Below are positions 22,431 through 60,974 of a DNA stretch of 64,000 nt, piece after piece. The notes beneath the pieces are model-generated. The model worked only from the letters and a program-made list of their open reading frames with translations. It made no database searches and was not told the DNA's origin. Every line of letters begins with the position of its first letter. Within the stretch, counting starts at the first letter, position 1. The stretch is from Naegleria gruberi (Eukaryota). A program made the translations under genes and the position numbers. The stretch lies in assembly GCA_000004985.1 (NCBI GenBank), contig GG738901.1; one strand, given 5' to 3'.

Positions 22431-25400
22431 TTATAATATCAAAGTTTCACTAGTTGCCCCAACACTCAAAGTACTGATTGACGCAACATGGACAGTTTCA
22501 CTGTCTTCCTGTTGAGGTATCAAATTATCCTTGCTTTCCATTTTGTCTTCCGTATTACTATCATTTTCACTAGGGTTTTTCTCAGTGAAATCTGCTGTTT
22601 CATTGACACCCTCTTGAACTTCTGAGGTAAGAATTTCATTCTCTGCAGTCTTTTCAATTGAGATTTCTTGTGTTGGGAAATTGGAAGCATTGTCCTCTGG
22701 TGTAGTTTCTTGATCTTGGGGAGCTGATTGGTCCACATCGGAAACAATTGCTTCCACTTCTCCAATCGTAATAGGAATATCCTCTACTTTAACTTGATCA
22801 TTTTCCTCCTTTTCATTGTTGGTGTCTTCTATTTTAGTAGATACTTCATTCTCTTGTAGATTTTCAATTTTTTCAATTGGAGAGGCTATGTCTGAAACTT
22901 CGTTTGGAGCTTCTGGGTTAATAACTTCCTGAGATAATGTGTTTTCAATTGAATCCATTTCTGCTGGTAAAGTCTCTGGTATTGTTTCACTGACTTCTTG
23001 ATGTTGAGTAACAATTACTGGATCTGATTTCATTTCTTCAACATCACTAAATGTTAGTTGGCTAACATCTTCCACCAGAGTGACCTTCTCTTCAATTTCT
23101 TCGCTTTTATCTTCAGTCGAATTTAATATCGTTGGAGATTCTAAAATATTAGATTTGTTATCATTTGAGGAGTCTTGTTCTGTTGGACCCTGGGTAATGG
23201 TTTCATTCTCAGTCTTCTCTGGAGCAGTGAAATCTGAAGCAACTTTAACATTTCTCAAACCGCTTCCTTTCTTTAAACTAGCTCTAGCCTTTAATAGTGG
23301 ACTAAGGCTATTCTCTTCATCCAAATCCGAATAACTTTTAGATCTGATTGAGAGTTGTCTCTTCTTGAGGAAATCAACACTTTTAGTTGAAATTGGAGGT
23401 GTGGATGGTGTGGTAGGGGTGGAAGGTGTTGAGGGACTGCTTAGTGGACTAGATGGGCTGCTTGGACTCGATGGAGAACTGAGTATTTTGCTCTCTGACT
23501 GAATTCTCTTCAAGGTCAATGTACGCTTGAGAGCTTGTTGATTTTTACGTTCTTCCTTATCAAGATCATCTTTTGCCTTCTTGAAATGGTTAATGAAATC
23601 CTTTACAATAATTAAAAGAGGATCTCCAGGTAAAGACAGTGCCTCATCTTCTGTAGGATTAAAGTGGAAAAAGTCGCATGCCATCTTGTAGCTATTGTTC
23701 AACTTTTCAAAAAGAGATTCTACTTGTGAGACAGATTCGTTACATTTTGATAGGAAACTACTAAAGTTTGCCTCAATCTTGTGATTCTTCTCCTTTTTCT
23801 TGATGGTATCAATGTCTGGTTTCTTTGATTGAAATAATTCTCTTACATCTTGAATTTCTTTCAAATCTTGTTGAATAATATCCAATTTTATATTGAATAT
23901 GTCTGAACTACAAACTCCATAAGATTCAAGTTCAACTTCAAAATTAAATAATTCACTCTTTTCATTCTTTAAGGTTTCTGCTAAAAAATGAACCAGGGTT
24001 GTTTTAGGATTAATACTTGACTTGGTATCGCTCAACTTGGGTAAAATGTTCAAGTGGAAACCCTGAGCTTCTTCCAGTTGTGCTTTACCTCTGTTCATAT
24101 AATTACCTACTTTCAGCAACATGTGCAAAAGTTTTACGAATGACTTTGAATTCTGCAAATTATCTACAGTGTTCAATTTTGCAGTAATGGTGTCACTAAT
24201 TCTTGTTGTGTCAAATGTTTTCATGTGTTGCATGAGTTGAAGTCTAGTTGGTAGTATTGAAATTTCAGCCAATTTCCATGTCCACAATAAAGAAGGTCTT
24301 AGATTGTCAAAATACTTCTCCACAACCTCTTTCTTCTTTACAATTTCCTCAGTAGCTGGAACAAATTGAGAAAGTCCCTTAATTTGATCAATCGTCAAAG
24401 ATTCAACATTCATAGTATTGATTGCATCCAACAATGTTTTCAACTCGCAATATTTAAAAAGACCATTCACCAAAATTTCTAAATTTCTTGCCAATGATGA
24501 ATCAATAATGGTGTTCAACTCATCATCAATGGCTTTCTTTGGATTTTTAACTTTGGTTGAAGGAGAAGAAGTCTTTTTTGCAGAAAACAAATTGTCCAAT
24601 TTTTCAAAGATGGCTTTTTGTTCTTCATCCATTTCTTCGTCCTCATCTTCCAAAACCCAAACTGATTTAACCTTGTCTTTAGTATTTCTAATTGGTTTCC
24701 AGTGGATGTTCTTGGTCTTGGAGACCTCTTTTTTGACTTTTGGTTTCAAGAACCCTCCTGGTGGAGGTGGAACACCAGGTGGTGGAGGAATTCCACCCAT
24801 CATTGGAGGTGGTGGAATGCCAAATGGTGGAGGTGGAATAGTTACCTCAACAGGAGGTGGAGGCAATGTTATGAGAATAGACTTGGGATCTATAATTTCG
24901 AATGGATATTTGGGCAGAGCATCTAAATAGTAAATGTCACCATCAAAGTAAAATTCAGGTCTAGTCTTGTTTGAGAAGAGATTCAAAATCACTTTGAGGT
25001 AGTCTGGTTCTTCTTTTTGGAGTGGATTTTCAACCAGAGTCAATGCCTCCAAATTATCGAAGTAGGTCAAGGGATAAATCTGATTCCACTCTAGAATGTT
25101 ATTTCCGTGAAGATAGACCTGCTTCAACTTATCCTTATCACATGCCTGTAGGAGACCTATTACATTTTCCAAGTAATTGTTAGAAACATCCGCTATTTCC
25201 AAGTTAGGTAATTTAACAACTGAAAAATAATCTAAATTTTCCAGTAAATTAAAGCTTAGATCCAATACTGTAAGATTTACGGTACATATTGAATTATTCT
25301 TTGAGAATTTGATGTTAGAGATTGAATTGTGTTGCAGACAAAGATCAGCCAAGTTTGGTACATTCACACCAGGTAGCAATATTTTGTCAACGTTTGTTTT

Positions 25401-26240
25401 GGTCAACTTGAAATTCTTTAAATTCTTCCATTCCCTATTTTCCTTAAATATGGAATTGTTAATCTCTGCAATTTCGCAATTTTCTATAGACAAGCCCTCT
25501 GTGTGTTCCAGAATTGATTTTCCGAAGCAATCATCATTCTCCATTTTCGAAATTAATTGTGGGCAATCAATGAATATTAACTTATTAGTTTGTGAGTTGA
25601 CAATTTTATCGAACGAGTCAACAATTACATTCCTGTAGAAGGTAATTTGTTTGAGCTCATTAGAGTTTAAAATTGATCCCAAATTAAAAGTACAAGTTGT
25701 AGATTTTCCAGTTATTCTAATCTCTTTCAAGTAGTGGAAATAACTCAAATCTAATGTAATCTTCTCGCTTTCAGTTAAATGTTCAAATCTCCTCACTTTT
25801 TTGTAAAATATTTCAATACTCGAAACTATAGTTTTAAACTTGTTCATTATTATCTCCAAGTCATTATTCGTCACTTGGATTGTATCATAGCTATTTACAA
25901 TATTATCTATAATCCACTTTAAAATTTTGTTCTGATTGGCCTCCCTTTTTTGGGTTACCTCGAAATCTGCCAATTTTTCATTTAACTTTTCCAAATGGTA
26001 TGTTGATAGTGAAACAATCGTTCCATTATCATATAACTCTTGTTCGCTATTCGCCTGTTGAAGGTAGAGTGCCAGTAATTTAATGACTTTATCAGAGGCA
26101 TGACAATGTTTTCTATTCGCAGATGTATTCATCACAGTTGTTGTTGTGATGAAGGAATTCATTGTTGACTCGGATGATAAATCATCAATATTGGCCCTAG
26201 AAGTGACACTCTTCCTTATAATTGCATCATTTATGTTCAT
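22431..26240 (-). CDS. formin with N-terminal leucine-rich repeats (LRR-FH1-FH2), 1269 aa, single exon
   Basis: ATG at 26240. N-terminal LRRs (LTVLDLSFNLLENLDYF, LPNLEIADVSNNYLENV ...), an FH1 proline tract (IPPPPFGIPPPPMMGGIPPPPGVPPPPGG) and an FH2 with the hallmark GNYMN plus KTTLVHFL. The C-terminus is Ser/Thr/Glu/Pro-rich low complexity. Confidence 0.85.
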   Translation of the reverse strand: MNINDAIIRKSVTSRANIDDLSSESTMNSFITTTTVMNTSANRKHCHASDKVIKLLALYLQQANSEQELYDNGTIVSLSTYHLEKLNEKLADFEVTQKREANQNKILKWIIDNIVNSYDTIQVTNNDLEIIMNKFKTIVSSIEIFYKKVRRFEHLTESEKITLDLSYFHYLKEIRITGKSTTCTFNLGSILNSNELKQITFYRNVIVDSFDKIVNSQTNKLIFIDCPQLISKMENDDCFGKSILEHTEGLSIENCEIAEINNSIFKENREWKNLKNFKLTKTNVDKILLPGVNVPNLADLCLQHNSISNIKFSKNNSICTVNLTVLDLSFNLLENLDYFSVVKLPNLEIADVSNNYLENVIGLLQACDKDKLKQVYLHGNNILEWNQIYPLTYFDNLEALTLVENPLQKEEPDYLKVILNLFSNKTRPEFYFDGDIYYLDALPKYPFEIIDPKSILITLPPPPVEVTIPPPPFGIPPPPMMGGIPPPPGVPPPPGGFLKPKVKKEVSKTKNIHWKPIRNTKDKVKSVWVLEDEDEEMDEEQKAIFEKLDNLFSAKKTSSPSTKVKNPKKAIDDELNTIIDSSLARNLEILVNGLFKYCELKTLLDAINTMNVESLTIDQIKGLSQFVPATEEIVKKKEVVEKYFDNLRPSLLWTWKLAEISILPTRLQLMQHMKTFDTTRISDTITAKLNTVDNLQNSKSFVKLLHMLLKVGNYMNRGKAQLEEAQGFHLNILPKLSDTKSSINPKTTLVHFLAETLKNEKSELFNFEVELESYGVCSSDIFNIKLDIIQQDLKEIQDVRELFQSKKPDIDTIKKKEKNHKIEANFSSFLSKCNESVSQVESLFEKLNNSYKMACDFFHFNPTEDEALSLPGDPLLIIVKDFINHFKKAKDDLDKEERKNQQALKRTLTLKRIQSESKILSSPSSPSSPSSPLSSPSTPSTPTTPSTPPISTKSVDFLKKRQLSIRSKSYSDLDEENSLSPLLKARASLKKGSGLRNVKVASDFTAPEKTENETITQGPTEQDSSNDNKSNILESPTILNSTEDKSEEIEEKVTLVEDVSQLTFSDVEEMKSDPVIVTQHQEVSETIPETLPAEMDSIENTLSQEVINPEAPNEVSDIASPIEKIENLQENEVSTKIEDTNNEKEENDQVKVEDIPITIGEVEAIVSDVDQSAPQDQETTPEDNASNFPTQEISIEKTAENEILTSEVQEGVNETADFTEKNPSENDSNTEDKMESKDNLIPQQEDSETVHVASISTLSVGATSETLIL

Positions 26241-28417: not shown

Positions 28418-29497
28418 CTAGAGTTTTGATTTTCTATTTACGAATGCCTTGGCTCCCTTAACTGTTTCAATATTAAGAGCAGTAAGACCAAGCTCATATT
28501 CTCTTTGAAGCTTTTCCTTCATCGATTTTCCGCTATAAGCTGCTTCAAGGGCTGAAGTTTTATCATTTCTCATACAAAGTTGTGGGAATACACATAATTG
28601 GTTAGCCAACTTCACAGCACAATCCAATACATTTTCATCCTTAGAAATTATTCTATTGATAAGGCCAATTTTATGTGCTTCCTTTCCATCAATTTCTCTT
28701 CCTGTCAAAATCAAGTCCATAGCTCTGCTCAATCCAATTAAAGTTGGTAAACGAATTGAACCTCCATCAATTAATGGAACACCATAACGTCTACAATTGA
28801 CACCAAATATCGAATTGGTCTTACAAACTCGTAAATCACACCAACAAGCAAGTTCCAAACCACCTGCAACACAGTAACCTCCTCCAATGGCAGCAATAAC
28901 TGGCTTGGATAAGCTCATTCTAGTTGGGCCCAGAGGTCCTTTTGCTGTTTTAGTTACTGGCTCAACTTGATTCAAATTTCCTTCCGAAACAGCTTTAAGA
29001 TCTGCCCCTACACAAAAATCAGTCTCGGAACCATATAATATAGCAACACGTGCATTTACATCCTTTTCAAAATCAAAGAATGCTTGATAAAGTTCATCTG
29101 CTGTTCTTCTATCAATTGCATTCTTCACCTCTGGGCGTTGAATTTTAATAATTTGAATTGTTCTATCAGATAAAAACGACACTGAAATATTCTTATAATT
29201 ATTCTTCGGAGCAAGTGGATGTTGTTTATAAATACTTCCACTATTATGATATTTAGTATGATGGTGAGAAGTGAAAATATCTTCCGATGCTAAAAGGCTT
29301 TCATCTTGCATTGATGTTTTCATCTTGAAAATTGATGGTGTTGTTGAAGATGAATTATTTCTTCTTGTTGTTGTAGAATTTGCTGCAGCTGATGAAGATG
29401 AAGAAGATCCATTGCTGCTACACTCATTCACCGATACTAATAACATTGTTTCATCTTGTTGTTCTCCGAGTTTTTGTGGGAGAAACGAGAGACGCAT
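28418..29497 (-). CDS. enoyl-CoA hydratase/isomerase (crotonase) family protein, probably peroxisomal (C-terminal SKL), about 359 aa
   Basis: Crotonase core IKIQRPEVKNAID...AILYGSETDFCVGADLK...IAAIGGGYCVAGGLELACWCDLRV, and a C-terminal -SKL PTS1. The likely start is the ATG at 29497 (MRLSFLPQ...) with a Ser-rich N-terminal extension; the ORF-track start is a TTG. Confidence 0.8.
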   Translation of the reverse strand: MRLSFLPQKLGEQQDETMLLVSVNECSSNGSSSSSSAAANSTTTRRNNSSSTTPSIFKMKTSMQDESLLASEDIFTSHHHTKYHNSGSIYKQHPLAPKNNYKNISVSFLSDRTIQIIKIQRPEVKNAIDRRTADELYQAFFDFEKDVNARVAILYGSETDFCVGADLKAVSEGNLNQVEPVTKTAKGPLGPTRMSLSKPVIAAIGGGYCVAGGLELACWCDLRVCKTNSIFGVNCRRYGVPLIDGGSIRLPTLIGLSRAMDLILTGREIDGKEAHKIGLINRIISKDENVLDCAVKLANQLCVFPQLCMRNDKTSALEAAYSGKSMKEKLQREYELGLTALNIETVKGAKAFVNRKSKL

Positions 29498-29757
29498 TTT
29501 TTTTTCTTTTCTTTTTGACTTCCTATTTAGGACCTTGGGTAGATGGATTTGGAAAAATATTAAGGGAAGAAAAAGTTGAGAGAATTGAGGATTGTGGAAT
29601 GAGTGGATGGAAGTAGATGTGGTGAGGAAGATGTGGTGAAGAGAGGATTGTGAATGGTTCAGTAATTGATGAGATTTCCAAGCAATTTGGTCAATTAGAT
29701 TTTTTTTCAAAAGCTCAATTAAAGTATTTCCTTGTCAAATATCGTGAAAGATTTTTT

Positions 29758-37214: not shown

Positions 37215-40200
37215 ATGAACGAATTGCTAACTACTACCAACAACCACAAGAACATTCTCACCTATTTTTATGCACCCATCAATGATTGTACAAATATTAA
37301 TTCATCATCATCAGCATCGGAACCATTTTCCAACAAACATGAAAAACATGAGGATGATGATCTTAATTTAATTGCTAATAAATCGACAAAAGTAGTACGA
37401 GATATTTTCCTATTTGAAGAATGGAGATTAATTGCAAGTTTTTTGACGAGGAAAAATTGTTTTGGAGGCTTGGCAAGTGTAAACAAAACTTCAAGATTGG
37501 CAGTTTTAAGTGTACATTTTATTAGAAATAGTGCAGTGATTAAATCATTTGCACTTCGTTGGATTTGGGCACAAACTATTGATAGTTATTCCGATAAATT
37601 ACCAAATAATAGATTTATTGAAATATTAAAACCACTTCAGGAGGAATATTATGATTTGCACCAATTTATACAAGATCCAAATCAAGAAAAGAGTGAAAAT
37701 TACTTTCCAATACCAAATTATTATTCACGTAATCTTGTAAAGGCAGCATGCAGTGTTGGAAATAACGAAATTATTTTACAATTAATTGAAAAATCATTTT
37801 TATTTGATTTGAGCACAGTAACACCATCAAAGTATTATGATTTGGCATTCTTGAATGGACATTATGATACAGCTGTTGCTTTTGCTAAAACTTTACTTTT
37901 AAGAAATGGAGAATTGGATATTTCCAAATGTATTCCTCAAATAATTTCTCCATTCATTGCACCAATTGAATTTGAAAATCAATATCAAATAGTCTATCAA
38001 TTATTTAACAGATCTCAAACACATTATCAATTGGGAATTAGTAGAATAATTTATGAATTATTACATTCACAACTTTTACAAACATGCCATGAGGAAGCTT
38101 CTAAAATTGGTTGGACTAATTTATTAGATATTGCTCTTTTTAATTTGCATTTCCCACAACTATTAATGCGAAATGATATTGAGTCAGTTCAATTTATTGT
38201 TGGACGTTTATATCAAAATAGAAAAGAAAACAATACTCTTCCATTATTTTCAAATGATTTGGAAAGAATCCTCATACAAATACAATCACTGGATCAAGTT
38301 GATTTTCTTGTATGGTTCTTTGAATATATAGGAAGTTTGGGAGAGTTGACATTATTATCGGATTTAATATTTAACAATTTGAATACTATTTTAACTATTA
38401 ATACTAAATTTTTAGATATTTATTTGAATCAATTTCATGGAAGACATGTTGAAAATGATGAAAAAAGACTCTATGAATATATGGATGGTTTGGATACCAA
38501 CTATCTTAATTTGATATCTCTTTTGGGAATTACTAAAATACCATACGAGAGGATTGCAAAACATTTAAACTCATGTGCACAGTACTATTTGGTTAATTAT
38601 GGTAATGTAATTGTTCAATATTATGAACCAGAAATTGCAACAATCATCTTTAATAACATTCAACTCTTCCTTGATGATACAAAGATTCATCCAAAGAAAC
38701 GTTCGCTCTGTTTAACACCAAGAGTACAAACAGATCTTGTTAATTTATTTCTCAAACAGGAGATTGTAGATTGGAAACTAATTGTAGAATTTATTGAAAA
38801 GAATCCATTCATGTCCAATTTTATGGAAATTATAATTTCAAATGCCTATGATTCGTTTACAAGAACAATATTGGATAGAATTTACTCAACTTCAGACTCT
38901 GAGAATTATTCATCCAGAAGAAGATTTATATTCAAATCCTTTACTAGATATATTGAGAAGGATGTTTATGACTTTTGTGCCTTGTTAATGTTTGCATGCA
39001 CAGTTGAAAAGAGTTTTATGAAAGCTTTGATAGAAAGGAATGAATTTTTAATATCAAAGATTCATGCCTCATTTGAACCATTTCAAAATGTTAGTCAAAT
39101 GATTGAAAGATGGAACGATGGTTCATTTGAATTAATTTCACATGATTTGCCTGTTTTGGACTGTCTTTGTAATAGTTCGTTGAAGGTATTTGTAAATGCT
39201 ATTGGTTCTCTATGGCCACTTTCTAATAATTTCCTCAGTTTGACATTTAAAATTCTCGATGAGTCATATGAACCTATCGTAAGAAATAACATTAATGATA
39301 TTAGAAACATTATCCGACATTTCATTACATCAAGTCATGATATTGATATTATAACATCATACTTCAAAACGACAATTCATCAGGAGGAAATTTTAAATGT
39401 TCTAATGGGATTACCACTATTTACGAAAGATAATTTGTTAAATATTTCAACATCGGTTTTAGCAAGAACAAAATTAACACTTTCAAGTTTAGATACGATT
39501 GTTAACATTATTCACGATCATTTTGATGATGTTCTAGAACAAAAATTCAAAGATTACATTACCATTCCACAAGATAATTTATCACAACTCATTTCTATCA
39601 AATACCATCCAAAATCAATATCATTACTTGAAAGAATTTCATATAGACATTTATTTGAACCTTCATATTTGTCATTCTTTGAACAAATTGAAAGTGTATG
39701 TGGAAGAGGAAGTATGGTTTCATCTGATAGTGCACAAGCCTATTGGAATGCATCCAGTGACCCTTATCTCTTGTTAAATGATAGAGATACTATTATGAAT
39801 CTACTTTCAAAATATGAAACTATTCCTAAAACAAGCAAGTGGAGATCAATTCTTACAGGTCTAGTTAATCATGGATTTATTGATGAACTATTGGAAAGAT
39901 TAGCGGAAAAAGAACATCGTAAACCAATTCTTTTTGAAAATTCTCCTCTTTTCACTTTAACAAGTTCATTTGGAAATATTTCTACTTCTTCTGAATTTCT
40001 ACAAGAAAATAGAAAGAAGGAACAACAATCAGAAAGAGAAAAACAACTCTCCTATGTTCAAGCTCCTCCTCTATTTAATTTTACTTTTGATTTTGGAAAT
40101 TCCAATAATAATAATAATAATAATGGAAACTCATTTATTTTCCTTTCTAAGAATGAATCAAACAGTGGAAATAGTAGTAGTGATGGTTTGGAATTACACT

Positions 40201-40274
40201 CATCTAAAGCACCCCCAACTAATTATTCACACACAACATTACCATTTAATCAATACCTACAGTTCAAGCAATAA
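37215..40274 (+). CDS. large F-box-like hypothetical protein, about 1019 aa
   Basis: The first ATG is at 37215 (MNELLTTT...). An N-terminal F-box-like VVRDIFLFEEWRLIASFLTRKNCFGGLASVNKTSRLAV, a long helical body and a C-terminal Asn/Ser-rich tail. Confidence 0.6.
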   Translation: MNELLTTTNNHKNILTYFYAPINDCTNINSSSSASEPFSNKHEKHEDDDLNLIANKSTKVVRDIFLFEEWRLIASFLTRKNCFGGLASVNKTSRLAVLSVHFIRNSAVIKSFALRWIWAQTIDSYSDKLPNNRFIEILKPLQEEYYDLHQFIQDPNQEKSENYFPIPNYYSRNLVKAACSVGNNEIILQLIEKSFLFDLSTVTPSKYYDLAFLNGHYDTAVAFAKTLLLRNGELDISKCIPQIISPFIAPIEFENQYQIVYQLFNRSQTHYQLGISRIIYELLHSQLLQTCHEEASKIGWTNLLDIALFNLHFPQLLMRNDIESVQFIVGRLYQNRKENNTLPLFSNDLERILIQIQSLDQVDFLVWFFEYIGSLGELTLLSDLIFNNLNTILTINTKFLDIYLNQFHGRHVENDEKRLYEYMDGLDTNYLNLISLLGITKIPYERIAKHLNSCAQYYLVNYGNVIVQYYEPEIATIIFNNIQLFLDDTKIHPKKRSLCLTPRVQTDLVNLFLKQEIVDWKLIVEFIEKNPFMSNFMEIIISNAYDSFTRTILDRIYSTSDSENYSSRRRFIFKSFTRYIEKDVYDFCALLMFACTVEKSFMKALIERNEFLISKIHASFEPFQNVSQMIERWNDGSFELISHDLPVLDCLCNSSLKVFVNAIGSLWPLSNNFLSLTFKILDESYEPIVRNNINDIRNIIRHFITSSHDIDIITSYFKTTIHQEEILNVLMGLPLFTKDNLLNISTSVLARTKLTLSSLDTIVNIIHDHFDDVLEQKFKDYITIPQDNLSQLISIKYHPKSISLLERISYRHLFEPSYLSFFEQIESVCGRGSMVSSDSAQAYWNASSDPYLLLNDRDTIMNLLSKYETIPKTSKWRSILTGLVNHGFIDELLERLAEKEHRKPILFENSPLFTLTSSFGNISTSSEFLQENRKKEQQSEREKQLSYVQAPPLFNFTFDFGNSNNNNNNNGNSFIFLSKNESNSGNSSSDGLELHSSKAPPTNYSHTTLPFNQYLQFKQ

Positions 40275-42123: not shown

Positions 42124-42759
42124 ATGGCTATTAAAGTTTATGGATATGCTGCAGCACTTTGCACTCAACGTGTTTTGGCAACATTGAAGGAAAAACAATT
42201 GGATTACGAATTGATTGTTGTTAATTTGGCCTCTGGAGAACAAAAGCAAGCTCCTTACATTGAAAAACAACCTTTTGGAGTGATTCCAGTTCTTGAAGAT
42301 GGTGAATTCACTATTTATGAATCACGTGCTATCTGTAGATATTTGGAAAACAAGTACAAGACCAGTGGAAATCAACTCATTCCAACCAATCCTGAAGAAT
42401 TGGGTTTGTTCGAACAAGGTGCTTCTATTGAAACTTCCTATTGGGATCCAAATGCTTCTGCTATTTTATTTGAAAAAATTTTCAAGGCCATGAAGGGTTT
42501 AGGTGAAGCCGATGAATCAAGAGTTAAGGTTGCAAGTGAAAAATTAGCTCAATATTTGGATGTTTACGAAAAGATTTTGAGCAAACAAGAATATATTGGT
42601 GGAAATCAATTTACTCTTGCTGATTTGTTCCATCTTCCTTATGGAAGTCTCTTGTTCGTGCCTCAAGTTAATTTTGGTCATTTGTTATTGGAACGTCCAC
42701 ATGTTAAAACTTGGTGGGAAAAGATTACTTCTAGACCTGCATGGCAAGAAGTTGCTTAA
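42124..42759 (+). CDS. glutathione S-transferase (phi/theta-like cytosolic class), 211 aa
   Basis: ATG at 42124. N-terminal thioredoxin-fold motifs IKVYGYAAALCTQRVLATLKEK, FGVIPVLEDGEFTIYESRAICRYL and a C-terminal alpha domain. Single exon. Confidence 0.9.
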   Translation: MAIKVYGYAAALCTQRVLATLKEKQLDYELIVVNLASGEQKQAPYIEKQPFGVIPVLEDGEFTIYESRAICRYLENKYKTSGNQLIPTNPEELGLFEQGASIETSYWDPNASAILFEKIFKAMKGLGEADESRVKVASEKLAQYLDVYEKILSKQEYIGGNQFTLADLFHLPYGSLLFVPQVNFGHLLLERPHVKTWWEKITSRPAWQEVA

Positions 42760-43093: not shown

Positions 43094-45120
43094 TTAATAA
43101 TGTCTTTGTTGACCACTCCAAAAGGTACAACTAGGTCTGAAATCTTCTTGTTGTGCATACATTTGACATCCCTTAAATGCCTCCTTTTCCATAGCTGTAA
43201 TTATTGAAGTATTTGGTAAGACTTTTGTAATTGTTGTAATCCAATTTTCTTCCGGCTTAACAACTATCACAGGAGTATTCGTGGAAACTAGCAATTGGTT
43301 AAGAGATTTTTTAAGCTCCTTTTCTAATGAATTCACAATGCAACTATCTCCATCAAATGATTGATAGTTGGCAACCTTACTAATGGTGATATGTACATCC
43401 TTCTCTATAACAACACAATTTGGAATGTTATGGTAATAAGCTATCATTACATGTCTTGATATGAAGCAAACAGCTGGTACTTGAGTATTGAGAGTCACAT
43501 TAATGAACTGTGCAAAGTTCCTCTTTTTGAGAAGGTAGGGTGGGATTGAAATTAACAGTGGATGCCTTGGTGAGATAACTATTTGATCACAAATTTTGGA
43601 AAAGAATGTTCCAACATTAAGTTCATGGATATGTCGATAATCGTCATCAGGATCATTTAGATAATCAAATACAGACCCTTGATGGGATCCTATTTTACCA
43701 ATCATAGCATCAGAGTAACTGTAAAAATTAAAGCTATAATTGAGGTGTTAATATTAGTGAATGAAATTAAGATTACTTACTGAACACCACTGTTTCTGCC
43801 AACGTATGGTTCCACTGTGTTTGGTGTTTCAACATTGAAAAGGCCATAGGTTGCCATCTCACTTGTAAAATCGATGCAAATAGCTTTGAAAGAATGTTCT
43901 GTGAAATTTCGAACTCTGACATGATGATACCAATCAATAGGTATGCCACTTTCACATAATTTACGGAAAGTGGTGCCATTCCAATATTTTTGATAGACTG
44001 ATTTCCAAATAATTGGTGATCGTGCAAGTTGATTCAAATATCTATTCAATGGTAAAACTATTGAGCATATTTCACTCTCCTTAAGAAAAGAAAATACGGT
44101 GAAGATAATCTCTTCTGGAAGAATTGTCAAATTGTTTTGCTCGATATTCTCTACAAGACCCTCTGGAATAAAGTAGTGTCTATTCAAAAGATATTCAAAG
44201 GTCTTTCCACTATCAACTAGCATCTGTTGTCCAGCTAAATAACTTTCTGAAGCAGCATAAACATCTCCATTCTTTTCCAATCTTTCGCTCTCTTTGAATA
44301 ATTGGCCAATTTTTTGATATGCCTCTGATTGCTCGAATTTTTCATCTCTTGGAATTGATAAAGAATCAACTCTGAGATACATAATTTCAGTTCTCAAAAT
44401 ATACTTGGTTCCTTTTGTTACAGGACAACCTTCATGATAAAAATCCTGATTGAAAAGAGCCAATTGACCCAATGATGGTTTTAAGGTATGCAAGAGACTG
44501 TATTCTTCAAAGTCAGAGTCTGTCTTTGTTGGATCATTGTAAAATCTTGTTTCTCCCCCTTTAAAATCCTGATTCAGATAGATCAGTAATGTGTAAATAC
44601 TTCTCTCATGCTCACTCCTTCTGAATTGACCATCAGTGTGTATTTTGAAATACTCTCCTGGTTCATACTTGCTTAATCTCATCATTTCATTAATTCCACA
44701 AGCTTTCCATTCACCTCTGCTATCCAAACCATAAGGAGTAATCAATTTTCCAATAGCATCTAAATCAATCGTCTCTTTGAGACGTTCAAATATTAGTTTT
44801 GCAAACTCCTTATCAGTAATCAGCTCCCTAGAAGCATTTCTATACTCCTTCGGATATTCATCTTCCAGGTTCTTAAAATCATTACACCTCTTGATCATAT
44901 CATTACACTCTTCACTGGTAAAAAAGTTCGGAATGGCCATCAATCTGTTCATACAAGTCTGATGGATTGGATGTTTTACTTTCGACAGCTTGGTCTCAAA
45001 TGATCGGGATGAAAATTGAACAATTTCATGGACTGGCAAAAGATCGCCTGGCTCAATAATAGAAAACTTTGTCTTGTGGCGAATATCGCGTTCCTTTCCC
45101 CTCGCATGTTTGTTTCCCAT
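43094..45120 (-). CDS. prolyl-4-hydroxylase-like 2OG-Fe(II) oxygenase domain fused to an F-box; complement(join(43094..43718,43781..45120)), about 654 aa
   Basis: ATG at 45120 (MGNKHARG). P4Hc-type motifs SKYEPGEYFKIHTDGQF (HxD), SIYTLLIYLNQDFKGGETRFYN, a distal FYHEG (His) and KYILRTEIMY. A downstream F-box, LTILPEEIIFTVFSFLKESEICSIVLPLNRYLNQLARSPIIWK. One 62-nt GTAAGT..CAG intron near the 3' end. Confidence 0.75.
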
Positions 45121-48703: not shown

Positions 48704-49570
48704 CTACTGTAGATTCAAGCCCGTAGTTGATTGTTGGTTTAGTGCTGGATAATAAAGTAAATGTCTAAAGGTTAGGGAAATTCTTCTTGGAAACCTCTTT
48801 TTTCTTTTAATTCCATGTTTCCAGTCATATCTTCCTTCCTTAGACATAATCAATAAAGAGTTTGGTTCCAATGTTAATTTAAATTTCATATCTGGATTGT
48901 TTGCACTCTCAAAATCCATTTGGCATTCGTTCACCAATGAAAGACAAACTATTTCCTTTCCAAATACCTTTACATTATCTACATGTTTGGCAATTGACTG
49001 CTCATAATATTCCTGAACTAAACATTGATTAATTCTATCATCTATGACTTGTTCTAGAGATGGTGCTTCCCATTCAAAAGAGGAAGGATCATTTGAATTT
49101 TCATAATACTCATCCAACCCTTTAATTTCCTCATCTTTCATAAAGTTAATTCCGAAATCCCTTTCAACAGGCTTTGAAACAAACGACAATTCATCAAGCA
49201 AGAGTGGTGATTTTCTCATTGGTTGCAAGCCTGGATGAAATAATTTAGTAAAATAGTAGTGAATTCCATAGCATTGAATTCTTCGGGAAAGTAGTGAATC
49301 ATACCACGAATGATTATCGAGAGTACTTAATAATTTACTTCCCTCATCATGGGAAAGATAATTCGGAACATAAATTAATCCTTCAATTTCTTCACCAGTA
49401 ATTGGATTCTTCACATAACCTGATGAATTACCAGAGGCAGTTGGTACATGTTGATCCGACACATCACTAGTTGAATAACAAGCTTTTTGTACTATTGATA
49501 ATAGAGAAGGAAGGCTTTGAAAATTATTTCTCTTGTTGTGCATGAGAGCGGGAAGGAATTTTTTGAGCAT
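48704..49570 (-). CDS. AlkB-like 2OG-Fe(II) dioxygenase (ALKBH7-like, probably mitochondrial), 288 aa
   Basis: ATG at 49570. An N-terminal basic/hydroxylated presequence MLKKFLPALMHNKRNNFQSL, an HxD (KHVDN), a downstream His (DWKHGI) and the AlkB-family 2OG-binding motif RISLTFR. Confidence 0.7.
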   Translation of the reverse strand: MLKKFLPALMHNKRNNFQSLPSLLSIVQKACYSTSDVSDQHVPTASGNSSGYVKNPITGEEIEGLIYVPNYLSHDEGSKLLSTLDNHSWYDSLLSRRIQCYGIHYYFTKLFHPGLQPMRKSPLLLDELSFVSKPVERDFGINFMKDEEIKGLDEYYENSNDPSSFEWEAPSLEQVIDDRINQCLVQEYYEQSIAKHVDNVKVFGKEIVCLSLVNECQMDFESANNPDMKFKLTLEPNSLLIMSKEGRYDWKHGIKRKKRFPRRISLTFRHLLYYPALNQQSTTGLNLQ

Positions 49571-49786: not shown

Positions 49787-52135
49787 ATGGCGCGTACACG
49801 AGGTAGCATTAGAAATAATGGCTATCCAGATGTTACTAGAATGGCTCCTCGTAAATTATATTTAGAAGAAAAACCACCAATAAAAGAATATTTGAGAAGG
49901 TTTGAAAAAGCACTCAGTAGTAATCCTGATGAATTTGATATGACTGTGTATGAGGCTTGTCCCGATATTACCAAACTTTGGATTATTCAAGATCAGAGAA
50001 AGCCAAAAGTAGTTGATCAAGAAATCTCGTGGGAGGGTTCATTTGAATTGTTGGAACATTTACCAAATGAATTAAAATTGGAAATTATTGATTTTATTCC
50101 AACCCGTAGTTTGCATCAAATGCATAGAAGAAGACTTGAAAAATTGGGAGAAGATATTTTAATGGAGTCTGTGAATGAGAAATGTTTATATTATTTGGAT
50201 AAACCTTTTGTGACCTATCACAAGATGAGAATAATTAACAAGGAGTGTGCCAGAAGAATGAATTTAAAGATTTTAGCAACTGACAGCTTTGATCTGTCAT
50301 CTTTTCACGATGAGATTTCAGTTGATAGAAAAAGGTCATTGTACTATTTTTTAGAGTTCATACGAGTACAATCTTTATTGGAACGAAAAGAAATTTCCTT
50401 AGATAATCCGTTTATATATGAAGGAGTTGAAAATATCAAAAAGTTGGACAAGAAAATATTCATTTCCGAACCAGAATTATTTCCTAAAAACACGGATATT
50501 CCTTCTACAGATCAAAATGAGCCAATAAGCTCGGAAACTTTTCAAACAATCACTACTGAACTTGAAGATGAAAAATTGGAAGACTTGCTTTCTGAAAAAC
50601 TATCCATCTACGTAACTCCTACAAGAAGAAGACGTAAACCACAATTTGTAGAAAAAAGGGACACAAAAGCTATTGAAAAGGCTCAATTTTATCAAGAACT
50701 AGTTCCAGCAGATAACATTCCGACAAAAATTACTTTAGACCATCTGAATGCTAATTTTCTTGAGGAGGTATCACAATATTTAGGAGAAAATAATACTATC
50801 AAGCACATAGTATTTAGTGGAATGGATTCGGCATTTCTTACTTGGATATTGAAATCACTCAAAGGGTTGAAAACAGTTGACATGGTATCTTGTGTTGTAC
50901 CGCCTTACTTTGTGACCGATCAAGGCAATTTGCACAATATTGAAAGGATATCTTTTTTCAATTGTGCAAATGTTTTTATAGACGAGTTTGAAAATCTTGC
51001 AAACTCTCTTTCAAGATCTTGTATAATAGAAAGCTTTCTTAATGATGAGGAGGAGCATTGTGACTTTGATGGCCAGTTCAAATACTTTGTCAATGATGAA
51101 CTCCAAACTGAATCAATTGGTGATGATAATGAGAAGCTCGTGATTCATTCCCACTCAAACGACACTTTCATCTTGAACGAGAGAATGAAGACTTTTTTTT
51201 CGTATGATTATTTCAGATGCACAGGTGCAAATCATCCTTTAAATTTCTTACAATTCCAAGATGCCCTCCCAATCAAACAAAAGAAAAATATTTCTGAATT
51301 CATGTTTAAGGAGAAAAGGATTCCAATAGAATTCTCCATAGCAATGATAGCAAATAATGAGCCAAATCTCATTTACTGTTATATTATTTATTTGGCTAAT
51401 ACCTATCAGAATGGTAGATTGCAAACGCCTACCGTTGATGGAACAATTTCTAGCTTAAAATATGGATGGATACCAACAAAAATGATGCAAGAACTCACTC
51501 TCAACACCCTAACATCAGATTACCTACCTTTAGCACTGAACTATATGAAAAACAAACTATCTGTAAGAATATTTGCCCAATTTTTGAGAGATTTATTGCT
51601 TGAGAGGATTTTTGGACACAACACTAACGATAATGAATTATTTGCCATTTATACAGTTATTAAGAAGGTTTTACCCACAGAAGAGAAACATGTATTATAT
51701 GAACATGTTAAATGCATTTCAAACAAAAATGCTGAAAAGTATTTGCCTTCTGTTACCGTTCCTATCCTGGGTCTAATTTTCAACAATTTCCAACTTGGTG
51801 TTGCATTGTTGAATGAAATGAGTGACTATGAGTTGCTTTTTCAAAATGAGTTGGGAGACACAATTTTACATTTTCCATTGGCTCATGATAATTTACTTAT
51901 CAATATGATTTTAGAAAAACAACCCAAATTAGCTAAAATTGTAAATAATTACAATAGCACAATTCTTCATAACTTTACAGCAGATAATTACTATCGTATT
52001 CCAGTAATTTACAACCTGATTCACAAATTTGATGCAGATCCAAATCATAGAGACATATTTGGCAACACACCATTTGATGAAGGCAATTTCAATTTTGATT
52101 ACGAGACAGGTATTATATCTCATAGATTCAACTAA
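49787..52135 (+). CDS. F-box plus ankyrin-repeat hypothetical protein, 782 aa
   Basis: ATG at 49787. An F-box-like FELLEHLPNELKLEIIDFIPTRSLHQMHRRR and C-terminal ankyrin-like repeats (GDTILHFPLAHDNLLINMIL...). Its stop overlaps the stop of the convergent gene below by 2 nt. Confidence 0.6.
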   Translation: MARTRGSIRNNGYPDVTRMAPRKLYLEEKPPIKEYLRRFEKALSSNPDEFDMTVYEACPDITKLWIIQDQRKPKVVDQEISWEGSFELLEHLPNELKLEIIDFIPTRSLHQMHRRRLEKLGEDILMESVNEKCLYYLDKPFVTYHKMRIINKECARRMNLKILATDSFDLSSFHDEISVDRKRSLYYFLEFIRVQSLLERKEISLDNPFIYEGVENIKKLDKKIFISEPELFPKNTDIPSTDQNEPISSETFQTITTELEDEKLEDLLSEKLSIYVTPTRRRRKPQFVEKRDTKAIEKAQFYQELVPADNIPTKITLDHLNANFLEEVSQYLGENNTIKHIVFSGMDSAFLTWILKSLKGLKTVDMVSCVVPPYFVTDQGNLHNIERISFFNCANVFIDEFENLANSLSRSCIIESFLNDEEEHCDFDGQFKYFVNDELQTESIGDDNEKLVIHSHSNDTFILNERMKTFFSYDYFRCTGANHPLNFLQFQDALPIKQKKNISEFMFKEKRIPIEFSIAMIANNEPNLIYCYIIYLANTYQNGRLQTPTVDGTISSLKYGWIPTKMMQELTLNTLTSDYLPLALNYMKNKLSVRIFAQFLRDLLLERIFGHNTNDNELFAIYTVIKKVLPTEEKHVLYEHVKCISNKNAEKYLPSVTVPILGLIFNNFQLGVALLNEMSDYELLFQNELGDTILHFPLAHDNLLINMILEKQPKLAKIVNNYNSTILHNFTADNYYRIPVIYNLIHKFDADPNHRDIFGNTPFDEGNFNFDYETGIISHRFN

Positions 52136-55422: not shown

Positions 55423-58400
55423 ATGTCTTTCTTTGGATTTGGTAGAAGTAGTAGTAGCAGCAATGTTACATCTCCTTCTTCTTCTTCGGGACAATCTGGT
55501 GATTCATCCCAATTATCTTCTCCAACTTATGACACTGGTAGAAATATTGATGGTATGTAAATTGATGATCATCAATTCAAATAATATTTAAAATTAATTT
55601 AGATATTGTGAAAGGATTATTGATTGCTTTGGATGATAGTGATATTAACGTACACAAGAATATTCACCAATCTCTTCTAAAAATTGGTAATGAATGCGAA
55701 TTGCTCTTACTGAGTAAATCACTCTACTTTTTAAATAATACTTGCCCGAAATCAAACAAGAAACACAGAGTATTTGTTATGAATATTCTTACTGAACTTT
55801 TAAATAAGAAACCATCTAGCAATGATTATGCTGTTGTTCGTACTTCTCTCAGTTCTCAAATTGATACAACACAACAATTATTTAAACTTCCGGATGATCT
55901 TTCTCGTGCATTGATTAATATGGCTGTATTAGAAATGGTACAAGAAAAATCTGTGAATTCCGATTGGCAAGCCAGTGCTTGTAATTTATTAATTGCATTA
56001 TCTAGATTCTCACCAGATATGGTTTCTGGACAATTATTGGAAAGATTCCCTGTTAGTAGTACAAATCCACCACATTATTTTGTTATCAAAGCTTTGAGTG
56101 ACATTGCTTTTTATTATCCATTATTATTTATTAGTAATTTGAAGGAAGTACTTTCAAGAACTTTACCTTTATTGGCTATGATTAAACACGATAACTTGAG
56201 ATGGGTTTTTTGTGCAGCCCTTGGTAGATGGTCGGAAGCAGCTATTTATTGTTTGGAATTATCTGAAAAATCAACTCAACATTCAAATCCTATTGATAAG
56301 ACAACAATTTCACAATATCACTCTTCAGTATTAACTGCTATGAAACATATCTTGTTGGAATGGTTGAACTTGAGAGAACCTAAAATCAGACTTGCTGCTG
56401 CTCAATCAATTGGTTACATGTGTCATATTATTGAAACAGATCAACTCAATCAATTACTTCCAAAATTAATGCCAAACTATATTCAATCACTCAGAAAAGA
56501 AATCAAGGATGACCCATTGCCAGTTACAGTTGGTCTTCAATATATTGTCAAGGTTGTTGTAAGAGATTGTCCAACCTCTTTGAATGAACATTTACAAGCA
56601 ACTTTGGGAACTTTGTACTCTGTATTGCTCACAACAATTGCCAGAAAGGGTTCTTATAAGAATGGTCAAAGAAATATTGCTGAAACTTTGAAGACATTCC
56701 ACTATTTGACTAGAGGATTTACTGACCAAGTAGTTTCATTCCTCCAAGCTCAATTGGAACAACCAACTGGTACTACTATTACACGTGTTAGTGCTCTCAA
56801 AATTTTAAGATATTTAGTTGTAAATAATGATGAAGATTTGATTTCTTACAGAGATGTAATTGTCAGTGGTTTGATGAAAATTCTCAAAGACCCAAGTGGT
56901 AATATGATTGTTATTGCTGATGACTCAGAAGTTCACTACGAATTCAGTGTTCTCATCCATACCATGGCACAAAAATCTGGATATATGATTTCACAAGGTG
57001 GTACTGAATTGGTTCATGTCATTTTGAGAGGTTGCTCTATTTCAGAAAGAAAAATTGCCGATGACCTTAAAGCCAAAATACCACCTTCCTTGTTGAATGG
57101 AAATGATCAAGAAAAAGTTGCTCAATCAATGATTGCCAGATATGAAAAGGAAGATGCTAGTGTTTTCGTAGATACCACCATAATTTCTGCCCAACAAACT
57201 GCTGAAGATGAGGAATTAAGCAGTGAAGATTCCGAAGGTAGCAAAACAACCAATCCACAAGACTCATTGGATTCATCAACAAATGTTCCACTTGTTGTAA
57301 CTTGGTACCAAGTTAGAGAAGGATGTGATCGTGTTTTATTGAGTTTCACAACTAAACTTGGTGAAGAAATGGATAAGGTTTTGTGGCCATTCTTACTTGA
57401 ATCTTTTGTTATTCCAAGTTATGATATCGCCTTCCCAGTTTTGTGTAGAGCTATTGCCGATATCAGCAAACGTAAGAAGAACGATGATGATTTCATTATT
57501 GATTTCGATGCTCAAGTCAACATTCCAAAGCAAAACTTTATCTTTGCTCGTTTATTGTTGAAGCTTACCTCTCCTTTTGGAAGAAATCAACCTGCTGTTA
57601 ACATTCTTCGTGCTCTCTATTGTCTTTCACCAAATATTCACCCAGATGTTGTTCAATTGTGGGGTAAGAAATTACCAAATTTGAAGAAGTATATTGATAC
57701 ATGTGACTCACTTACTTCCTTCAACCAAGACGAATGGGATAATCAATTATTGAACCTTGTTCGTGACAGTATTGACAGCGTTCAAGATGATAGATGGGCT
57801 GTTGCTCTTGGTGAAGCTTTGCTTGATCATGCTGACATTTTCTATAAGAACAATAGATTGTTGAAAAAGGCCTTGTTATCAATTGTTGGTCTCATTATTC
57901 AAAAGAGTCAACTTAAGCAATTTATTCACTCTGCTGTTGAAAGATGCTTCAAGATTACTGATCACACCAGTGATGAAGAAAGATTGGGATGCGCTCGTGG
58001 TCTAGGTCAAGCTGCTGTTAATCATTGTGATAGTGTTTTAACACAATTGCAAAATGTTATGAAGGCTCCAGAAAAGAAAACTGGTTTCTTCGCCAGAAAT
58101 ACTGGTAAGGAAGTTGGTCCAGAAGAAAGAGCTACTGCTATTCTTTCATATGGTTATGTATCTATGCTCACTCCTTTGAATCTCATTACATCTCGTGTCG
58201 AAGTTCACGTTGTTAAAAACATGACTCCAATTTTGAAACCTCAACCACCTCAACCAATTCCATATGAATTGAAAGAAAATGGATTGAAGGCTATTGATTT
58301 GATTGGTAAATCAGTCCATCCAAGTAGATTGAGTGATTTTATTTTGAAATCCAGAGATGAACTTGTTAGACTTGTTATTCAAATTATGACTCCATCTGCT

Positions 58401-60974
58401 CAATTATTGCAACAAGTTAATACTGTCCCTCAATACTTGTCTATTAACAAGTTAAGAGCTTTGGGTCTTGATGCCATTTCTACTTTGATTAAATTGCCAC
58501 CAAAGATTGAAGTTGACGTACAAAACGAGGTTCTTAACACCGTTTTAGGATTAATCAAAATTAAAAGTGCTATCAAACCAACAGATGCAAAACAACCACT
58601 TGGTATTGAAGAACTTCAAACTTCTGATGATTCAATTTTGGAAGGCGTTAGTAATGTCTTATTCTCACTTCTCCATACTGATAATAGCCAAGGTACTCTT
58701 GATGATATTTTAAAGGCATTGGAAACTGATCACCTCAACTCTCAAAATTCTTTGGAAAGAGACAGATCTGCCAACATTTATGTTTCCCTTTTGAAAGATT
58801 TTGCCAAGCTTATTTCTGCATATGACTCAGAATCTCAATCAGCTAACGTATTTGGTACATCCATGATTAGTTTGGGCCGTATTATTGGTCAACTTATTCC
58901 TCGAGTCACTGAATCTACAATTGGTGTTAGAAAATCTGGTCTTGATGGAATTTATCTTGTTTTGAGAATTCAACACTTCTTGCAAAACATTAAATCCCAA
59001 GATGATGAAGACCTTCCAGAATATCTTCAACAAATTGGTCCACTCAGAAACCAACTTTTTGAAGCTAGTAACATTAAGGAATTATTTGAAGTTACCAAAG
59101 AACTTTCACAAATCCTCTGCGAAGCCATCAAGGACAAGTCTCACTTGATGAATCTTATCGATACTTTGATTGATACCTTGGTCGATCCTGAAGTTGATGG
59201 TGCCAATAGCTCATGTATTGTCTTGAGTGCTTTGATTAGACTTAGAGGTAAAGAACTCGAACAAGAAGCTGCTAACTATGTCAAGAAGATGATCAAGCTA
59301 ATTCCTCAATTCATTTCCAATCAAAGAGAACAAATTGTTAGTGGTTTGCTCCATGGTATTAGAGGTTTCACTAGACATTTCCCACTTTTGATTATGAACA
59401 CCTTGATTGCTTATCCAGTCCCTCATACCATTGAAGTTACCAAGAGCTTCCAAATTATCTCTACCGATCCAATGTTGAATCAACAATTGTTAGATCACTT
59501 ACTTGACATTATCAATAATGCTCAACTCTATGAAGAAAAGAGATCATCAGAAGTTGATATGGACTTGATTCCAACACACAATACAGTCTCCTGTACACAA
59601 GCCCTTTATGAAATCTTGGCTGTTGAAGACTTTGCCCAAATTGCCATGAAGAATTATGCCTCAATCATAATTACTGCACTCGTTAGAGTTGGTACTGCTA
59701 ACGAAATGACTGTAAATCCTCCAACTAAGTATGCTCAACAATGTATCATTAACTTCTACAAGCTCACACAAGAAACAATTCGTAATGCTAAATTGGAAGA
59801 ATTGGAAGAAACACACGATTCTAGCCATGAAGATCACAAACAAACCTTTGAAGAACGTAAGGAAGCCATTATTTCTAGTACTCCTCTCGAGTTTGAAGCT
59901 ACTATCTTGGAAGGTCTTCTCCAAAAGAAGATTTATGGTGACTCTGTCCAAGAAGTTTTGAGTAAGATTTGTAAAGCTTATCCACAACATGTTAGAGCCA
60001 TGTTTGATTTTGTAAAGCCATTCATTAGCAGAACCTTCATTGGTCAAAGAGTTATTGCTACTTGTATTATTTCTGTATTACTTAACTTTATCCAAAATGA
60101 TAGAGAATTAGTCCACAATTGCATCAATGCCTTACTCAGCAGAAGTGGTACTGATGAAGTTGTCGTTGTGAAATTGTATGCCTTGCGTGGTTTGTCTAGT
60201 TTGTCCATCCATCCAAAGGATATTCTTCATCAATATGTTACTCCTGTTATTGGTGCTCTTCTTTCCAATTTGGAAGATTTGAATCAAGCTGTTATTCTGG
60301 AAGCTATGACAAGTGTAAAGAATATTTTCAAGATTGCTGAAGACGCCTACATTTCACCACTTTTAATGAACTTGTGTGTTAGATTGAAGCCATCATTTGA
60401 AAAGAAAGATCCACTCATTAGAGAAGCATCAATCAAATTATTTGGTGCTTTGCATCGTTTCTGTGATGGTGTTATGAGAGATACCCTCATTTCAACAATT
60501 TTCAATAATTTGCCAATTTTGTTATGTCACGTTCAAGATCCTGAAGAAAATGTCAGTATTGCATGCAGACTTGCTTTAAGACAACTTGTTCCAACACTTA
60601 AGAGTGAAGCATTTACTGAAATTTTCCAAATTGATGCCTTTAAGGTTGAAGATACCACTGCTCCTCAAGCTGTACAACCATTGAAATTTGATGAATTTTC
60701 TGAAATTTTCGCCAAAACTTGGATTCAAGAGTTCCCAGACAGAATTAGTGATTTGGTCATGAATTTGGTTGTGTTCTATAAGAGTGAATGGTCAAATTGT
60801 TGCGCCTCAGCTTGTTTGATTCTTGGTTATTTGCTTGCTAATTTAAGTAAGGAGCAAAAGACAAGAGTCAATCTTAGACACACTACACAAGGCCTCACTG
60901 ACTTGTTAAAATCACCTTCTCCTCTCATTAGAGAAAAGGTTTCCAAGATGTTAGGTTTATTATTCGAAGCTTAA
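55423..60974 (+). CDS. large HEAT/ARM-repeat protein (MROH1/HEATR7-like?); join(55423..55552,55603..60974), about 1833 aa
   Basis: Exon 1 encodes MSFFGFGRSSSSSNVTSPSSSSGQSGDSSQLSSPTYDTGRNID and ends at a GTATGT donor. A 50-nt intron with a TTTAG acceptor joins in frame to a 5.4-kb exon of alpha-helical repeats. Confidence 0.8.

Follow-up and report, generated by a model that had tools for sequence, protein, structure and literature searches.

A putative SCF-associated hydroxylase of Naegleria gruberi: a eukaryotic protein family combining a collagen-type oxygenase, an F-box, and an actin-like domain

Introduction

2-Oxoglutarate (2OG) oxygenases within F-box proteins are already known. The animal JmjC histone demethylases KDM2A and KDM2B (FBXL11 and FBXL10) carry an F-box and leucine-rich repeats (LRRs). 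JcdI and JcdH (Fbxo13) are JmjD6-like dioxygenase F-box proteins of protists, plants, and fungi that are conserved across protists (PMC9485057), and "sporadic fusions to F-box" have been noted for JMJD6 (PMC2938197). The known oxygen-sensing hydroxylases work either with a separate ubiquitin ligase, as PHD does with VHL in animals, or by modifying a ligase subunit, as PhyA does with Skp1 in protists. Here, we analyze a gene at positions 43094 to 45120 (minus strand) of a 64,000-nucleotide stretch of Naegleria gruberi DNA (assembly GCA_000004985.1, contig GG738901.1), referred to below as the window. From N to C terminus, its product consists of a collagen-type 2OG/Fe(II) oxygenase, a helical hairpin, an F-box, and an actin-fold domain. 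It is almost certainly a Naegleria member of an old, uncharacterised eukaryotic three-domain family, and its sequence suggests that it probably connects the O2-dependent hydroxylation of proteins with SCF (Skp1-Cul1-F-box) ubiquitin ligases.

Although the sequences of this family are public, they are unstudied. Two features appear to be new, since neither was found in the literature searched: a prolyl-4-hydroxylase (P4H)-type oxygenase in an F-box protein and an actin fold behind an F-box. A preliminary description of the window had recognized the oxygenase and the F-box but missed the C-terminal actin-like domain (amino acids [aa] ~404 to 654) and the widespread conserved family, and the missed domain changes the functional picture.

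Results

Oxygenase, hairpin, and F-box

The features of the gene, in coordinates of the window, are as follows.

43094..45120, minus strand: whole gene; two exons, 654-aa product, stop codon at 43094-43096
43781..45120, minus strand: exon 1; aa 1-446 plus 2 nt of the His447 codon
43719..43780, minus strand: intron of 62 nt, GTAAGT...TTTTTACAG, phase 2, within the actin-like domain
43094..43718, minus strand: exon 2; aa 447-654 plus stop codon
44362..44955, minus strand: prolyl-4-hydroxylase-like 2OG/Fe(II) oxygenase domain (aa ~56-253)
44632..44640, minus strand: predicted iron ligands H161-T-D163 (CAC ACT GAT), read directly from the sequence
44404..44436, minus strand: predicted distal iron ligand H229 (44434-44436) to 2OG-binding K239 (44404-44406)
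44520-44802, minus strand: stretch matching Poxvirus C4/C10 in Pfam (aa 107-200)
44143..44355, minus strand: conserved helical-hairpin linker (aa ~256-326); two long helices in AF2 models
43975..44142, minus strand: F-box (aa 327-382; Pfam match 333-377; LPEEIIFTVFSFL...IWKSVY)
43097..43911, minus strand: degenerate actin-fold domain (aa ~404-654), split by the intron

Searching the spliced protein with the Pfam hidden Markov models (HMMs) identified both the oxygenase (PF13640, 2OG-FeII_Oxy_3, aa 148-242; E 8.4e-14, 52.8 bits against a cutoff of 27) and the F-box (PF12937, F-box-like, aa 333-377; E 6.9e-6, 26.2 bits against a cutoff of 24.3). With both matches above the curated cutoffs and a two-exon model that is in frame, the single gene with a P4H-type core and an F-box that had been proposed from the bare sequence is confirmed. 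The HxD...H motif and the 2OG-binding lysine also proved intact, as had been read: H161, D163, H229, and K239 are present and match their counterparts in an alignment with Bacillus anthracis P4H, and K239 lies at His+10, the P4H-type 2OG-binding lysine. The active site appears complete, and the domain is predicted to be an active enzyme. In 154 family sequences, the catalytic columns are conserved in 152 (H161), 152 (D163), 150 (H229), and 147 (K239) cases, the remainder being gaps save for one Gly at the H229 column. This near invariance argues that the family is under selection to remain an active enzyme.

To which branch of the prolyl hydroxylases the domain belongs was judged from a profile of 12 family oxygenase domains, searched against solved structures. 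It matched B. anthracis P4H best (E 1e-9), followed by Chlamydomonas P4H-1 (E 2e-6), PBCV-1 P4H (E 2e-4), human P4H-TM (E 3e-4), Pseudomonas PPHD (E 0.03), and, weakly, poxvirus C10 (structure 8ag3; E 0.08), and left DdPhyA (6t8m) and PHD2 unmatched at E<=1. These scores, together with the lysine at His+10, place the domain in the collagen-type (P4Hc) branch and not in the PhyA/PHD branch. Hence, of the "P4H/PHD-type" core in the preliminary description, the P4H part stands and the PHD part does not. The fold is a double-stranded beta-helix, closest to prolyl hydroxylases; in Foldseek searches, PhyA/PHD-type structures were matched at 1e-4 to 1e-5, with ~16-18% identity in the structural alignments. 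A partial match to Pox_C4_C10 (PF03336; 27 bits versus a cutoff of 25, covering ~70 of 322 model positions), which recurs in 14 of 61 aligned family sequences, suggests that poxvirus C4/C10 derive from this oxygenase subfamily.

The hairpin between oxygenase and F-box is well conserved, with Y268, S278, E282, G285, Y294, Q298, L301, and G305 invariant in six Naegleria sequences. The F-box behind it starts ~104 residues after H229 and ~170 residues after the HxD motif, which corrects an earlier estimate of about 150 residues downstream of the core. Its sequence, LPEEIIFTVFSFLKESEICSIVLPLNRYLNQLARSPIIWKSVY, follows the canonical pattern and reads LPEEII..VFSFL...W. When the family F-box profile was run against solved structures, it retrieved F-box proteins almost exclusively: FBXL5 at 1.6e-11 and also FBXO4, FBXL2, GID2, Skp2, Cdc4, FBXW7, and KDM2A/B. 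A canonical F-box with matches of this kind very probably binds Skp1.

A degenerate actin-like domain at the C terminus

By eye, residues ~404-654 resemble actin (ICIDFTSEMATYG versus VVDNGSGMCKAG; RHPLLISIPP versus EHPVLLTEAP). The Pfam Actin model (cutoff, 27 bits) did not match the window protein or its C-terminal region. It scored just under the cutoff in the closest relatives, P0003 of N. lovaniensis (24.8 bits) and P0004 of N. fowleri (19.9 bits), and strongly in more distant family members (best E 9e-36, up to 123.8 bits). The C-terminal region of the window protein matches P0003 (5e-27) and P0012 (7e-7), and P0012 matches human actin residues 11-169 (8e-8). A three-sequence profile is collinear with actin residues 3-160 (hhalign E 0.0014) and gives weak matches to actin-related proteins (Arps) in the PDB (E 0.06-0.4). 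The actin identity of the domain appears established through the family and through structure, not by a direct Pfam match.

This domain has diverged considerably from actin. The nucleotide-binding motifs of the window protein have decayed (phosphate-1 DFTSE versus DNGSG, phosphate-2 EKD versus DSGDG, adenosine STN versus GGT), and they are degenerate across the family as well, with a frequent TGG as the exception. Of subdomain 4, ~15 residues are left in the window protein and 15-22 in the clade that it forms with P0003 and P0004, compared with 89 in actin. Other family members have 71-119, and most of them retain the four-subdomain fold and the TGG adenosine motif.

Gene model and splice

The list of open reading frames (ORFs) for the window contains two on the minus strand here, from 45120 to 43777 and from 43705 to 43094. 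Excision of the 62-nt interval 43780..43719 (GTAAGTAATC...TTTTTACAG) fuses them in frame into a 1965-nt coding sequence for 654 aa. Four lines of sequence evidence support this splice model. Firstly, homology runs from end to end: the spliced product can be aligned with P0003 (743 aa) and P0004 (744 aa) over 97% of its length, the C-terminal motif DFRxxCTFWxG encoded by exon 2 is common to all three proteins, and the start MGNKH is kept in the N. gruberi ortholog P0002. Secondly, the intron is conserved, as the annotated N. lovaniensis gene for P0003 has a 67-nt intron at the same His codon and in the same phase (GG|H-Y-S), in addition to a second intron without counterpart in the window gene.

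Thirdly, the database models P0001, P0002 (N. gruberi), and P0005 end exactly at the intron with a terminal Q, because read-through of CA|GTAAG yields this residue. Exon 1 equals P0001 (98% identity), which itself runs into the intron. Fourthly, both exons are intact in metagenome contig L001 (99% identical), where the gene differs by 19 substitutions over 2027 nt, shows no indel, and has an identical intron, versus 33 gap openings in the flanks. With 9 synonymous and 9 nonsynonymous changes, the two copies are too close for a selection test. The position of the intron inside the actin-like domain also argues against two separate genes.

In all, four database models are cut at the conserved phase-2 intron with the terminal Q, P0002 and P0006 from N. 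gruberi and P0001 and P0005 from an ENA metagenome. The actin-like domain is therefore absent from these entries, and N. gruberi seems to own only "P4Hc domain" proteins.

The N-terminal sequence MGNKHA (aa 1-6; 45103-45120, minus strand), MGNKHS in the N. gruberi ortholog, resembles an N-myristoylation signal and hints at membrane association. Such an N terminus is confined to this ortholog pair, the paralogs being without it.

A widespread three-domain family

A profile search for the combination of P4H and F-box in other taxa, a check suggested at the outset, revealed a large conserved family. Carried out exhaustively with the oxygenase-to-F-box region, it gave 7629 matches at E<=1e-3 and 543 at E<=1e-30, among them many proteins of 600 to 900 aa that match this stretch in one piece. 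Word-indexed homology searches had under-counted the family, with 6 and then 39 proteins. Pfam detected 2OG-FeII_Oxy_3 in all 61 aligned family sequences, F-box-like in 40/61, F-box in 26/61, and Actin in 30/61. Among 100 sequences with a length of 550 aa or more, counting the window protein, family HMMs detected all three domains in 65 and oxygenase plus F-box in 27 others. Wherever coordinates were available, the order was always oxygenase, F-box, actin-like domain, also in sequences outside the HMM training set. The window protein itself scored 9e-75 (oxygenase), 6e-22 (F-box), and 3e-23 (actin-like) with HMMs whose training alignment contained its exons; independent support comes from the phmmer matches to P0003, P0004, and P0012 and from the alignment. 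The motifs EEC, EYPxEYRN, and PYGFDxxGxW form a family signature.

The taxonomic range can be read from the minority of database entries that bear names. Members occur in Heterolobosea (Naegleria gruberi, N. fowleri, N. lovaniensis with at least four paralogs, and Willaertia magna), in Dictyostelia (Cavenderia, Acytostelium, Heterostelium, Tieghemostelium, Polysphondylium, and several Dictyostelium species, including D. discoideum), and in other Amoebozoa (Physarum polycephalum, Dracoamoeba, and the Arcellinida Arcella and Pyxidicula). The opisthokonts are represented by the choanoflagellate Choanoeca flexa and the chytrids Rhizophlyctis and Nowakowskiella, and the dinoflagellates by one transcriptome, possibly a contamination. 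All named entries are called "hypothetical protein" or carry an automatic domain name. Those from Physarum and Dracoamoeba are transcript-derived single ORFs; the fusion is therefore real at the mRNA level in these relatives, and an annotation artefact is ruled out. The best database matches of the window gene are Naegleria proteins. In a quick neighbor-joining distance tree, calculated without support values, the heterolobosean sequences cluster and the window protein lies beside P0002 of N. gruberi.

Relatives consisting of the oxygenase only are found in diatoms, agaricomycete fungi, and metagenome-assembled genomes (MAGs) of giant viruses. In the viral contigs L003 (3139-3771) and L004 (2869-3624), an oxygenase of this subfamily (25-26% identical) stands alone; the L003 copy includes the helical hairpin, and both copies lack the F-box and the actin-like domain. 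An origin of the fusion in giant viruses was rejected on these grounds.

In P0023 of Dictyostelium purpureum (2127 aa), the actin domain is followed by lipase-like, STAND NTPase-like, and TPR regions; either gene models may have been merged here, or the protein may be a truly extended variant.

Structural models

The full-length model of P0003, built from a 39-sequence alignment, is good and shows a confident inter-domain arrangement (predicted template modeling score [pTM], 0.77). A model of exon 1 of the window gene alone was poor, with a predicted local distance difference test (pLDDT) score of 57.5 and values <50 in the F-box region.

Other genes in the window

The G+C content of the window is 30-36%, and the neighbors are ordinary eukaryotic genes, of which the following could be named.

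3644-4825, plus strand: AP mu subunit
13518-14528, plus strand: eEF1A/HBS1-like GTPase fragment
22431-26240, minus strand: formin FH2 protein
28418-29710, minus strand: enoyl-CoA hydratase
42124-42759, plus strand: GST, a neighbor conserved in metagenome contig L001
52132-53490, minus strand: APP1 phosphatidate phosphatase
55608-60974, plus strand: Maestro-type HEAT protein

Three further F-box genes had been listed for the window. The one at 11764-12972 (minus strand) holds up in a weak form, with clear LRRs and an F-box-like match at E 0.0053, below the cutoff. Those at 37215-40274 and 49787-52135 (both plus strand) do not hold up: an LPxE-like stretch can be seen by eye in each, but they matched no Pfam domain, and no F-box even at E<=5. 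Tandem paralogs or an F-box gene cluster were considered and rejected, as no other ORF in the window has the architecture described here. A 288-aa ORF at 48704-49570 (minus strand), 3.6 kb upstream of the gene, encodes an AlkB-like 2OG-FeII_Oxy_2 protein (E 4.6e-16), a second and unrelated 2OG oxygenase.

Discussion

In the family described here, an actin-like domain lies behind the F-box and an oxygenase in front of it, as does the JmjC domain in KDM2A/B, and we therefore propose that the window protein is an SCF-associated hydroxylase. An SCF substrate receptor with built-in hydroxylase activity, as also considered in the preliminary description, is the most plausible role that its sequence suggests. 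In this scheme, the F-box would dock the protein on Skp1 and thereby on Cul1-Rbx1. The actin-like domain, which occupies the usual substrate-receptor position of F-box proteins, would recruit a partner protein. Using O2 and 2OG, the oxygenase would hydroxylate a residue, most likely a proline, on this partner or on a neighboring SCF-bound protein. The hydroxylated partner would then be ubiquitinated by the SCF, so that hydroxylation and ubiquitination would be coupled and depend on both O2 and 2OG. Four elements of this scheme are inferred: that the enzyme is active, that it binds Skp1, that its actin-like domain acts as a receptor, and what its substrate is. Taking domain and family identity together with the mechanism, we give the proposal an even chance; the mechanism by itself is more tentative and falls somewhat short of that.

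Several observations weigh against the proposal. The hydroxylated residue may be Pro, Lys, Asp, or another and cannot be read from the sequence. The actin-like domain of the window protein is the most reduced in the family and has no Pfam match, so that it may have no receptor role and persist as a structural remnant. The one good structural model describes P0003, a relative with 35-40% identity, and not the window protein. The oxygen-related function of JcdI is independent of its F-box, and by analogy a coupling that depends on the F-box may not be a given here. Finally, no paper on a P4H/F-box/actin protein was found in the literature, and a supplement of PMC9485057 makes no mention of one.

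The strongest competing explanation holds that the F-box, like that of JcdI, serves only as a handle for turnover or regulation. The protein would then work as a hydroxylase in its own right; its targets would escape ubiquitination by the SCF to which it belongs, and its abundance would be under Skp1/SCF control. Precedent for this comes from Dictyostelium, where the effects of JcdI overexpression on O2 sensing need catalysis and not the F-box and where association with Skp1 correlates with lower JcdI levels; some F-box proteins may bear F-boxes only to regulate their own turnover (PMC9485057). However, an F-box followed by a C-terminal domain is the classical receptor layout, and its order is fixed in most of the family across distant eukaryotes. 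The confident inter-domain model of P0003 likewise suggests an integrated machine. We consider the handle explanation unlikely, though it deserves to be taken seriously.

A more specific version of the receptor proposal concerns the cytoskeleton. The actin fold might mimic an actin or Arp subunit and dock on actin or actin-binding proteins, which the hydroxylase would mark and the SCF ubiquitinate, making the protein an oxygen-gated SCF ligase acting on the actin cytoskeleton. All lineages among the named family sources (Heterolobosea, Amoebozoa, chytrids, and a choanoflagellate) have crawling or amoeboid cells. In human cells, PHD3 is reported to hydroxylate actin at proline (PMC4161513), a finding that is disputed (PMC6739866). 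If this idea were true, amoeboid motility, aerotaxis, or the switch between amoeba and flagellate would be adjusted directly by ambient O2. We regard it as speculative and rather improbable.

Alternatively, the enzyme might hydroxylate Skp1 itself while tethered to it via the F-box, as a hard-wired version of the PhyA-Skp1 oxygen sensor. This variant of the pathway had been put forward when the gene was first noticed. The F-box would indeed place the active site near Skp1, and prolyl hydroxylation of Skp1 is present in many protists (PMC11570480). Against this, the oxygenase is of the collagen type and not of the PhyA/PHD type. Moreover, Dictyostelia possess both PhyA and this family, and yet Skp1 is reported to be unmodified in phyA- cells (PMC9485057); a family that coexists with PhyA is not its replacement. 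The target proline lies within the region of Skp1 that contacts the F-box (PMC11570480) and may be hidden once an F-box is bound. For Naegleria, no statement on PhyA or on the Skp1 target proline was found in the literature. These points weaken the idea, and we rate its probability as low.

Lower still is the probability that the protein is a catalytically dead scaffold, a pseudo-enzyme whose sole role is to connect Skp1 with an actin-related partner. The actin-like domain has clearly degenerated, and domains of this family can evidently lose their ancestral chemistry. However, four intact Fe/2OG-binding residues, essentially invariant in 154 sequences, would be unexpected in a dead enzyme. 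Lastly, the N. gruberi annotation and prokaryote-style gene callers include no more than the first ORF of 447-451 aa, but the wrong joining of an oxygenase plus F-box gene to a small downstream ORF can be dismissed as extremely improbable, given that the actin-like domain starts in exon 1 and runs on into exon 2, that the site and phase of the intron are conserved in an annotated relative, that homology extends to the common C-terminal motif, and that transcript-derived relatives are single ORFs.

If the proposal of an SCF-associated hydroxylase is correct, the union of a P4H-type hydroxylase with a motif for SCF docking and a candidate receptor in a single chain would constitute a third arrangement, more direct than the two used by the known O2-sensing hydroxylases, and would hint at hydroxylation substrates of a so far unknown class. 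The presence of the family in Dictyostelium discoideum, the genetic model for work on Skp1 and O2, and in the pathogen Naegleria fowleri makes these ideas directly testable.

Among described proteins, KDM2A and KDM2B share with the family a 2OG/Fe(II) oxygenase N-terminal to an F-box, followed by a C-terminal protein-interaction domain, and their F-boxes are among the solved structures matched by the family F-box profile. They differ in having a JmjC demethylase rather than a P4H-type domain, CXXC/PHD chromatin modules, and C-terminal LRRs rather than an actin fold. JcdI and JcdH are likewise O2-dependent non-haem dioxygenases and are proven Skp1-binding F-box proteins in an amoeba (PMC9485057), but their F-box is N-terminal, their JmjC-type oxygenase comes from a different branch of the superfamily, and they lack an actin-like domain.

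The cytoplasmic P4Hs of the PhyA/PHD type, such as the Skp1 hydroxylase of Dictyostelium and Toxoplasma and animal PHD2, have a fold of the double-stranded beta-helix kind and the HxD...H triad in common with the window protein, and a functional link to Skp1/SCF, but PhyA has no F-box and no actin domain. PHD-type enzymes bind 2OG with Arg, whereas the window protein has the collagen-type Lys at His+10. In contrast to the family, the collagen-type P4Hs (B. anthracis P4H, Chlamydomonas P4H-1, PBCV-1 vCPH, and human P4H-TM) are stand-alone proteins, secreted, located in the endoplasmic reticulum, or bacterial, without an F-box or actin fold, and the family is set apart from them by its own signature motifs. 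Poxvirus C4/C10 are viral proteins without an F-box or actin domain. Unlike the actin-related proteins (Arp1-11 and axonemal actin-like proteins), finally, the actin-like domain of the window protein is fused behind an F-box and combines degenerate nucleotide motifs with a vestige of subdomain 4.

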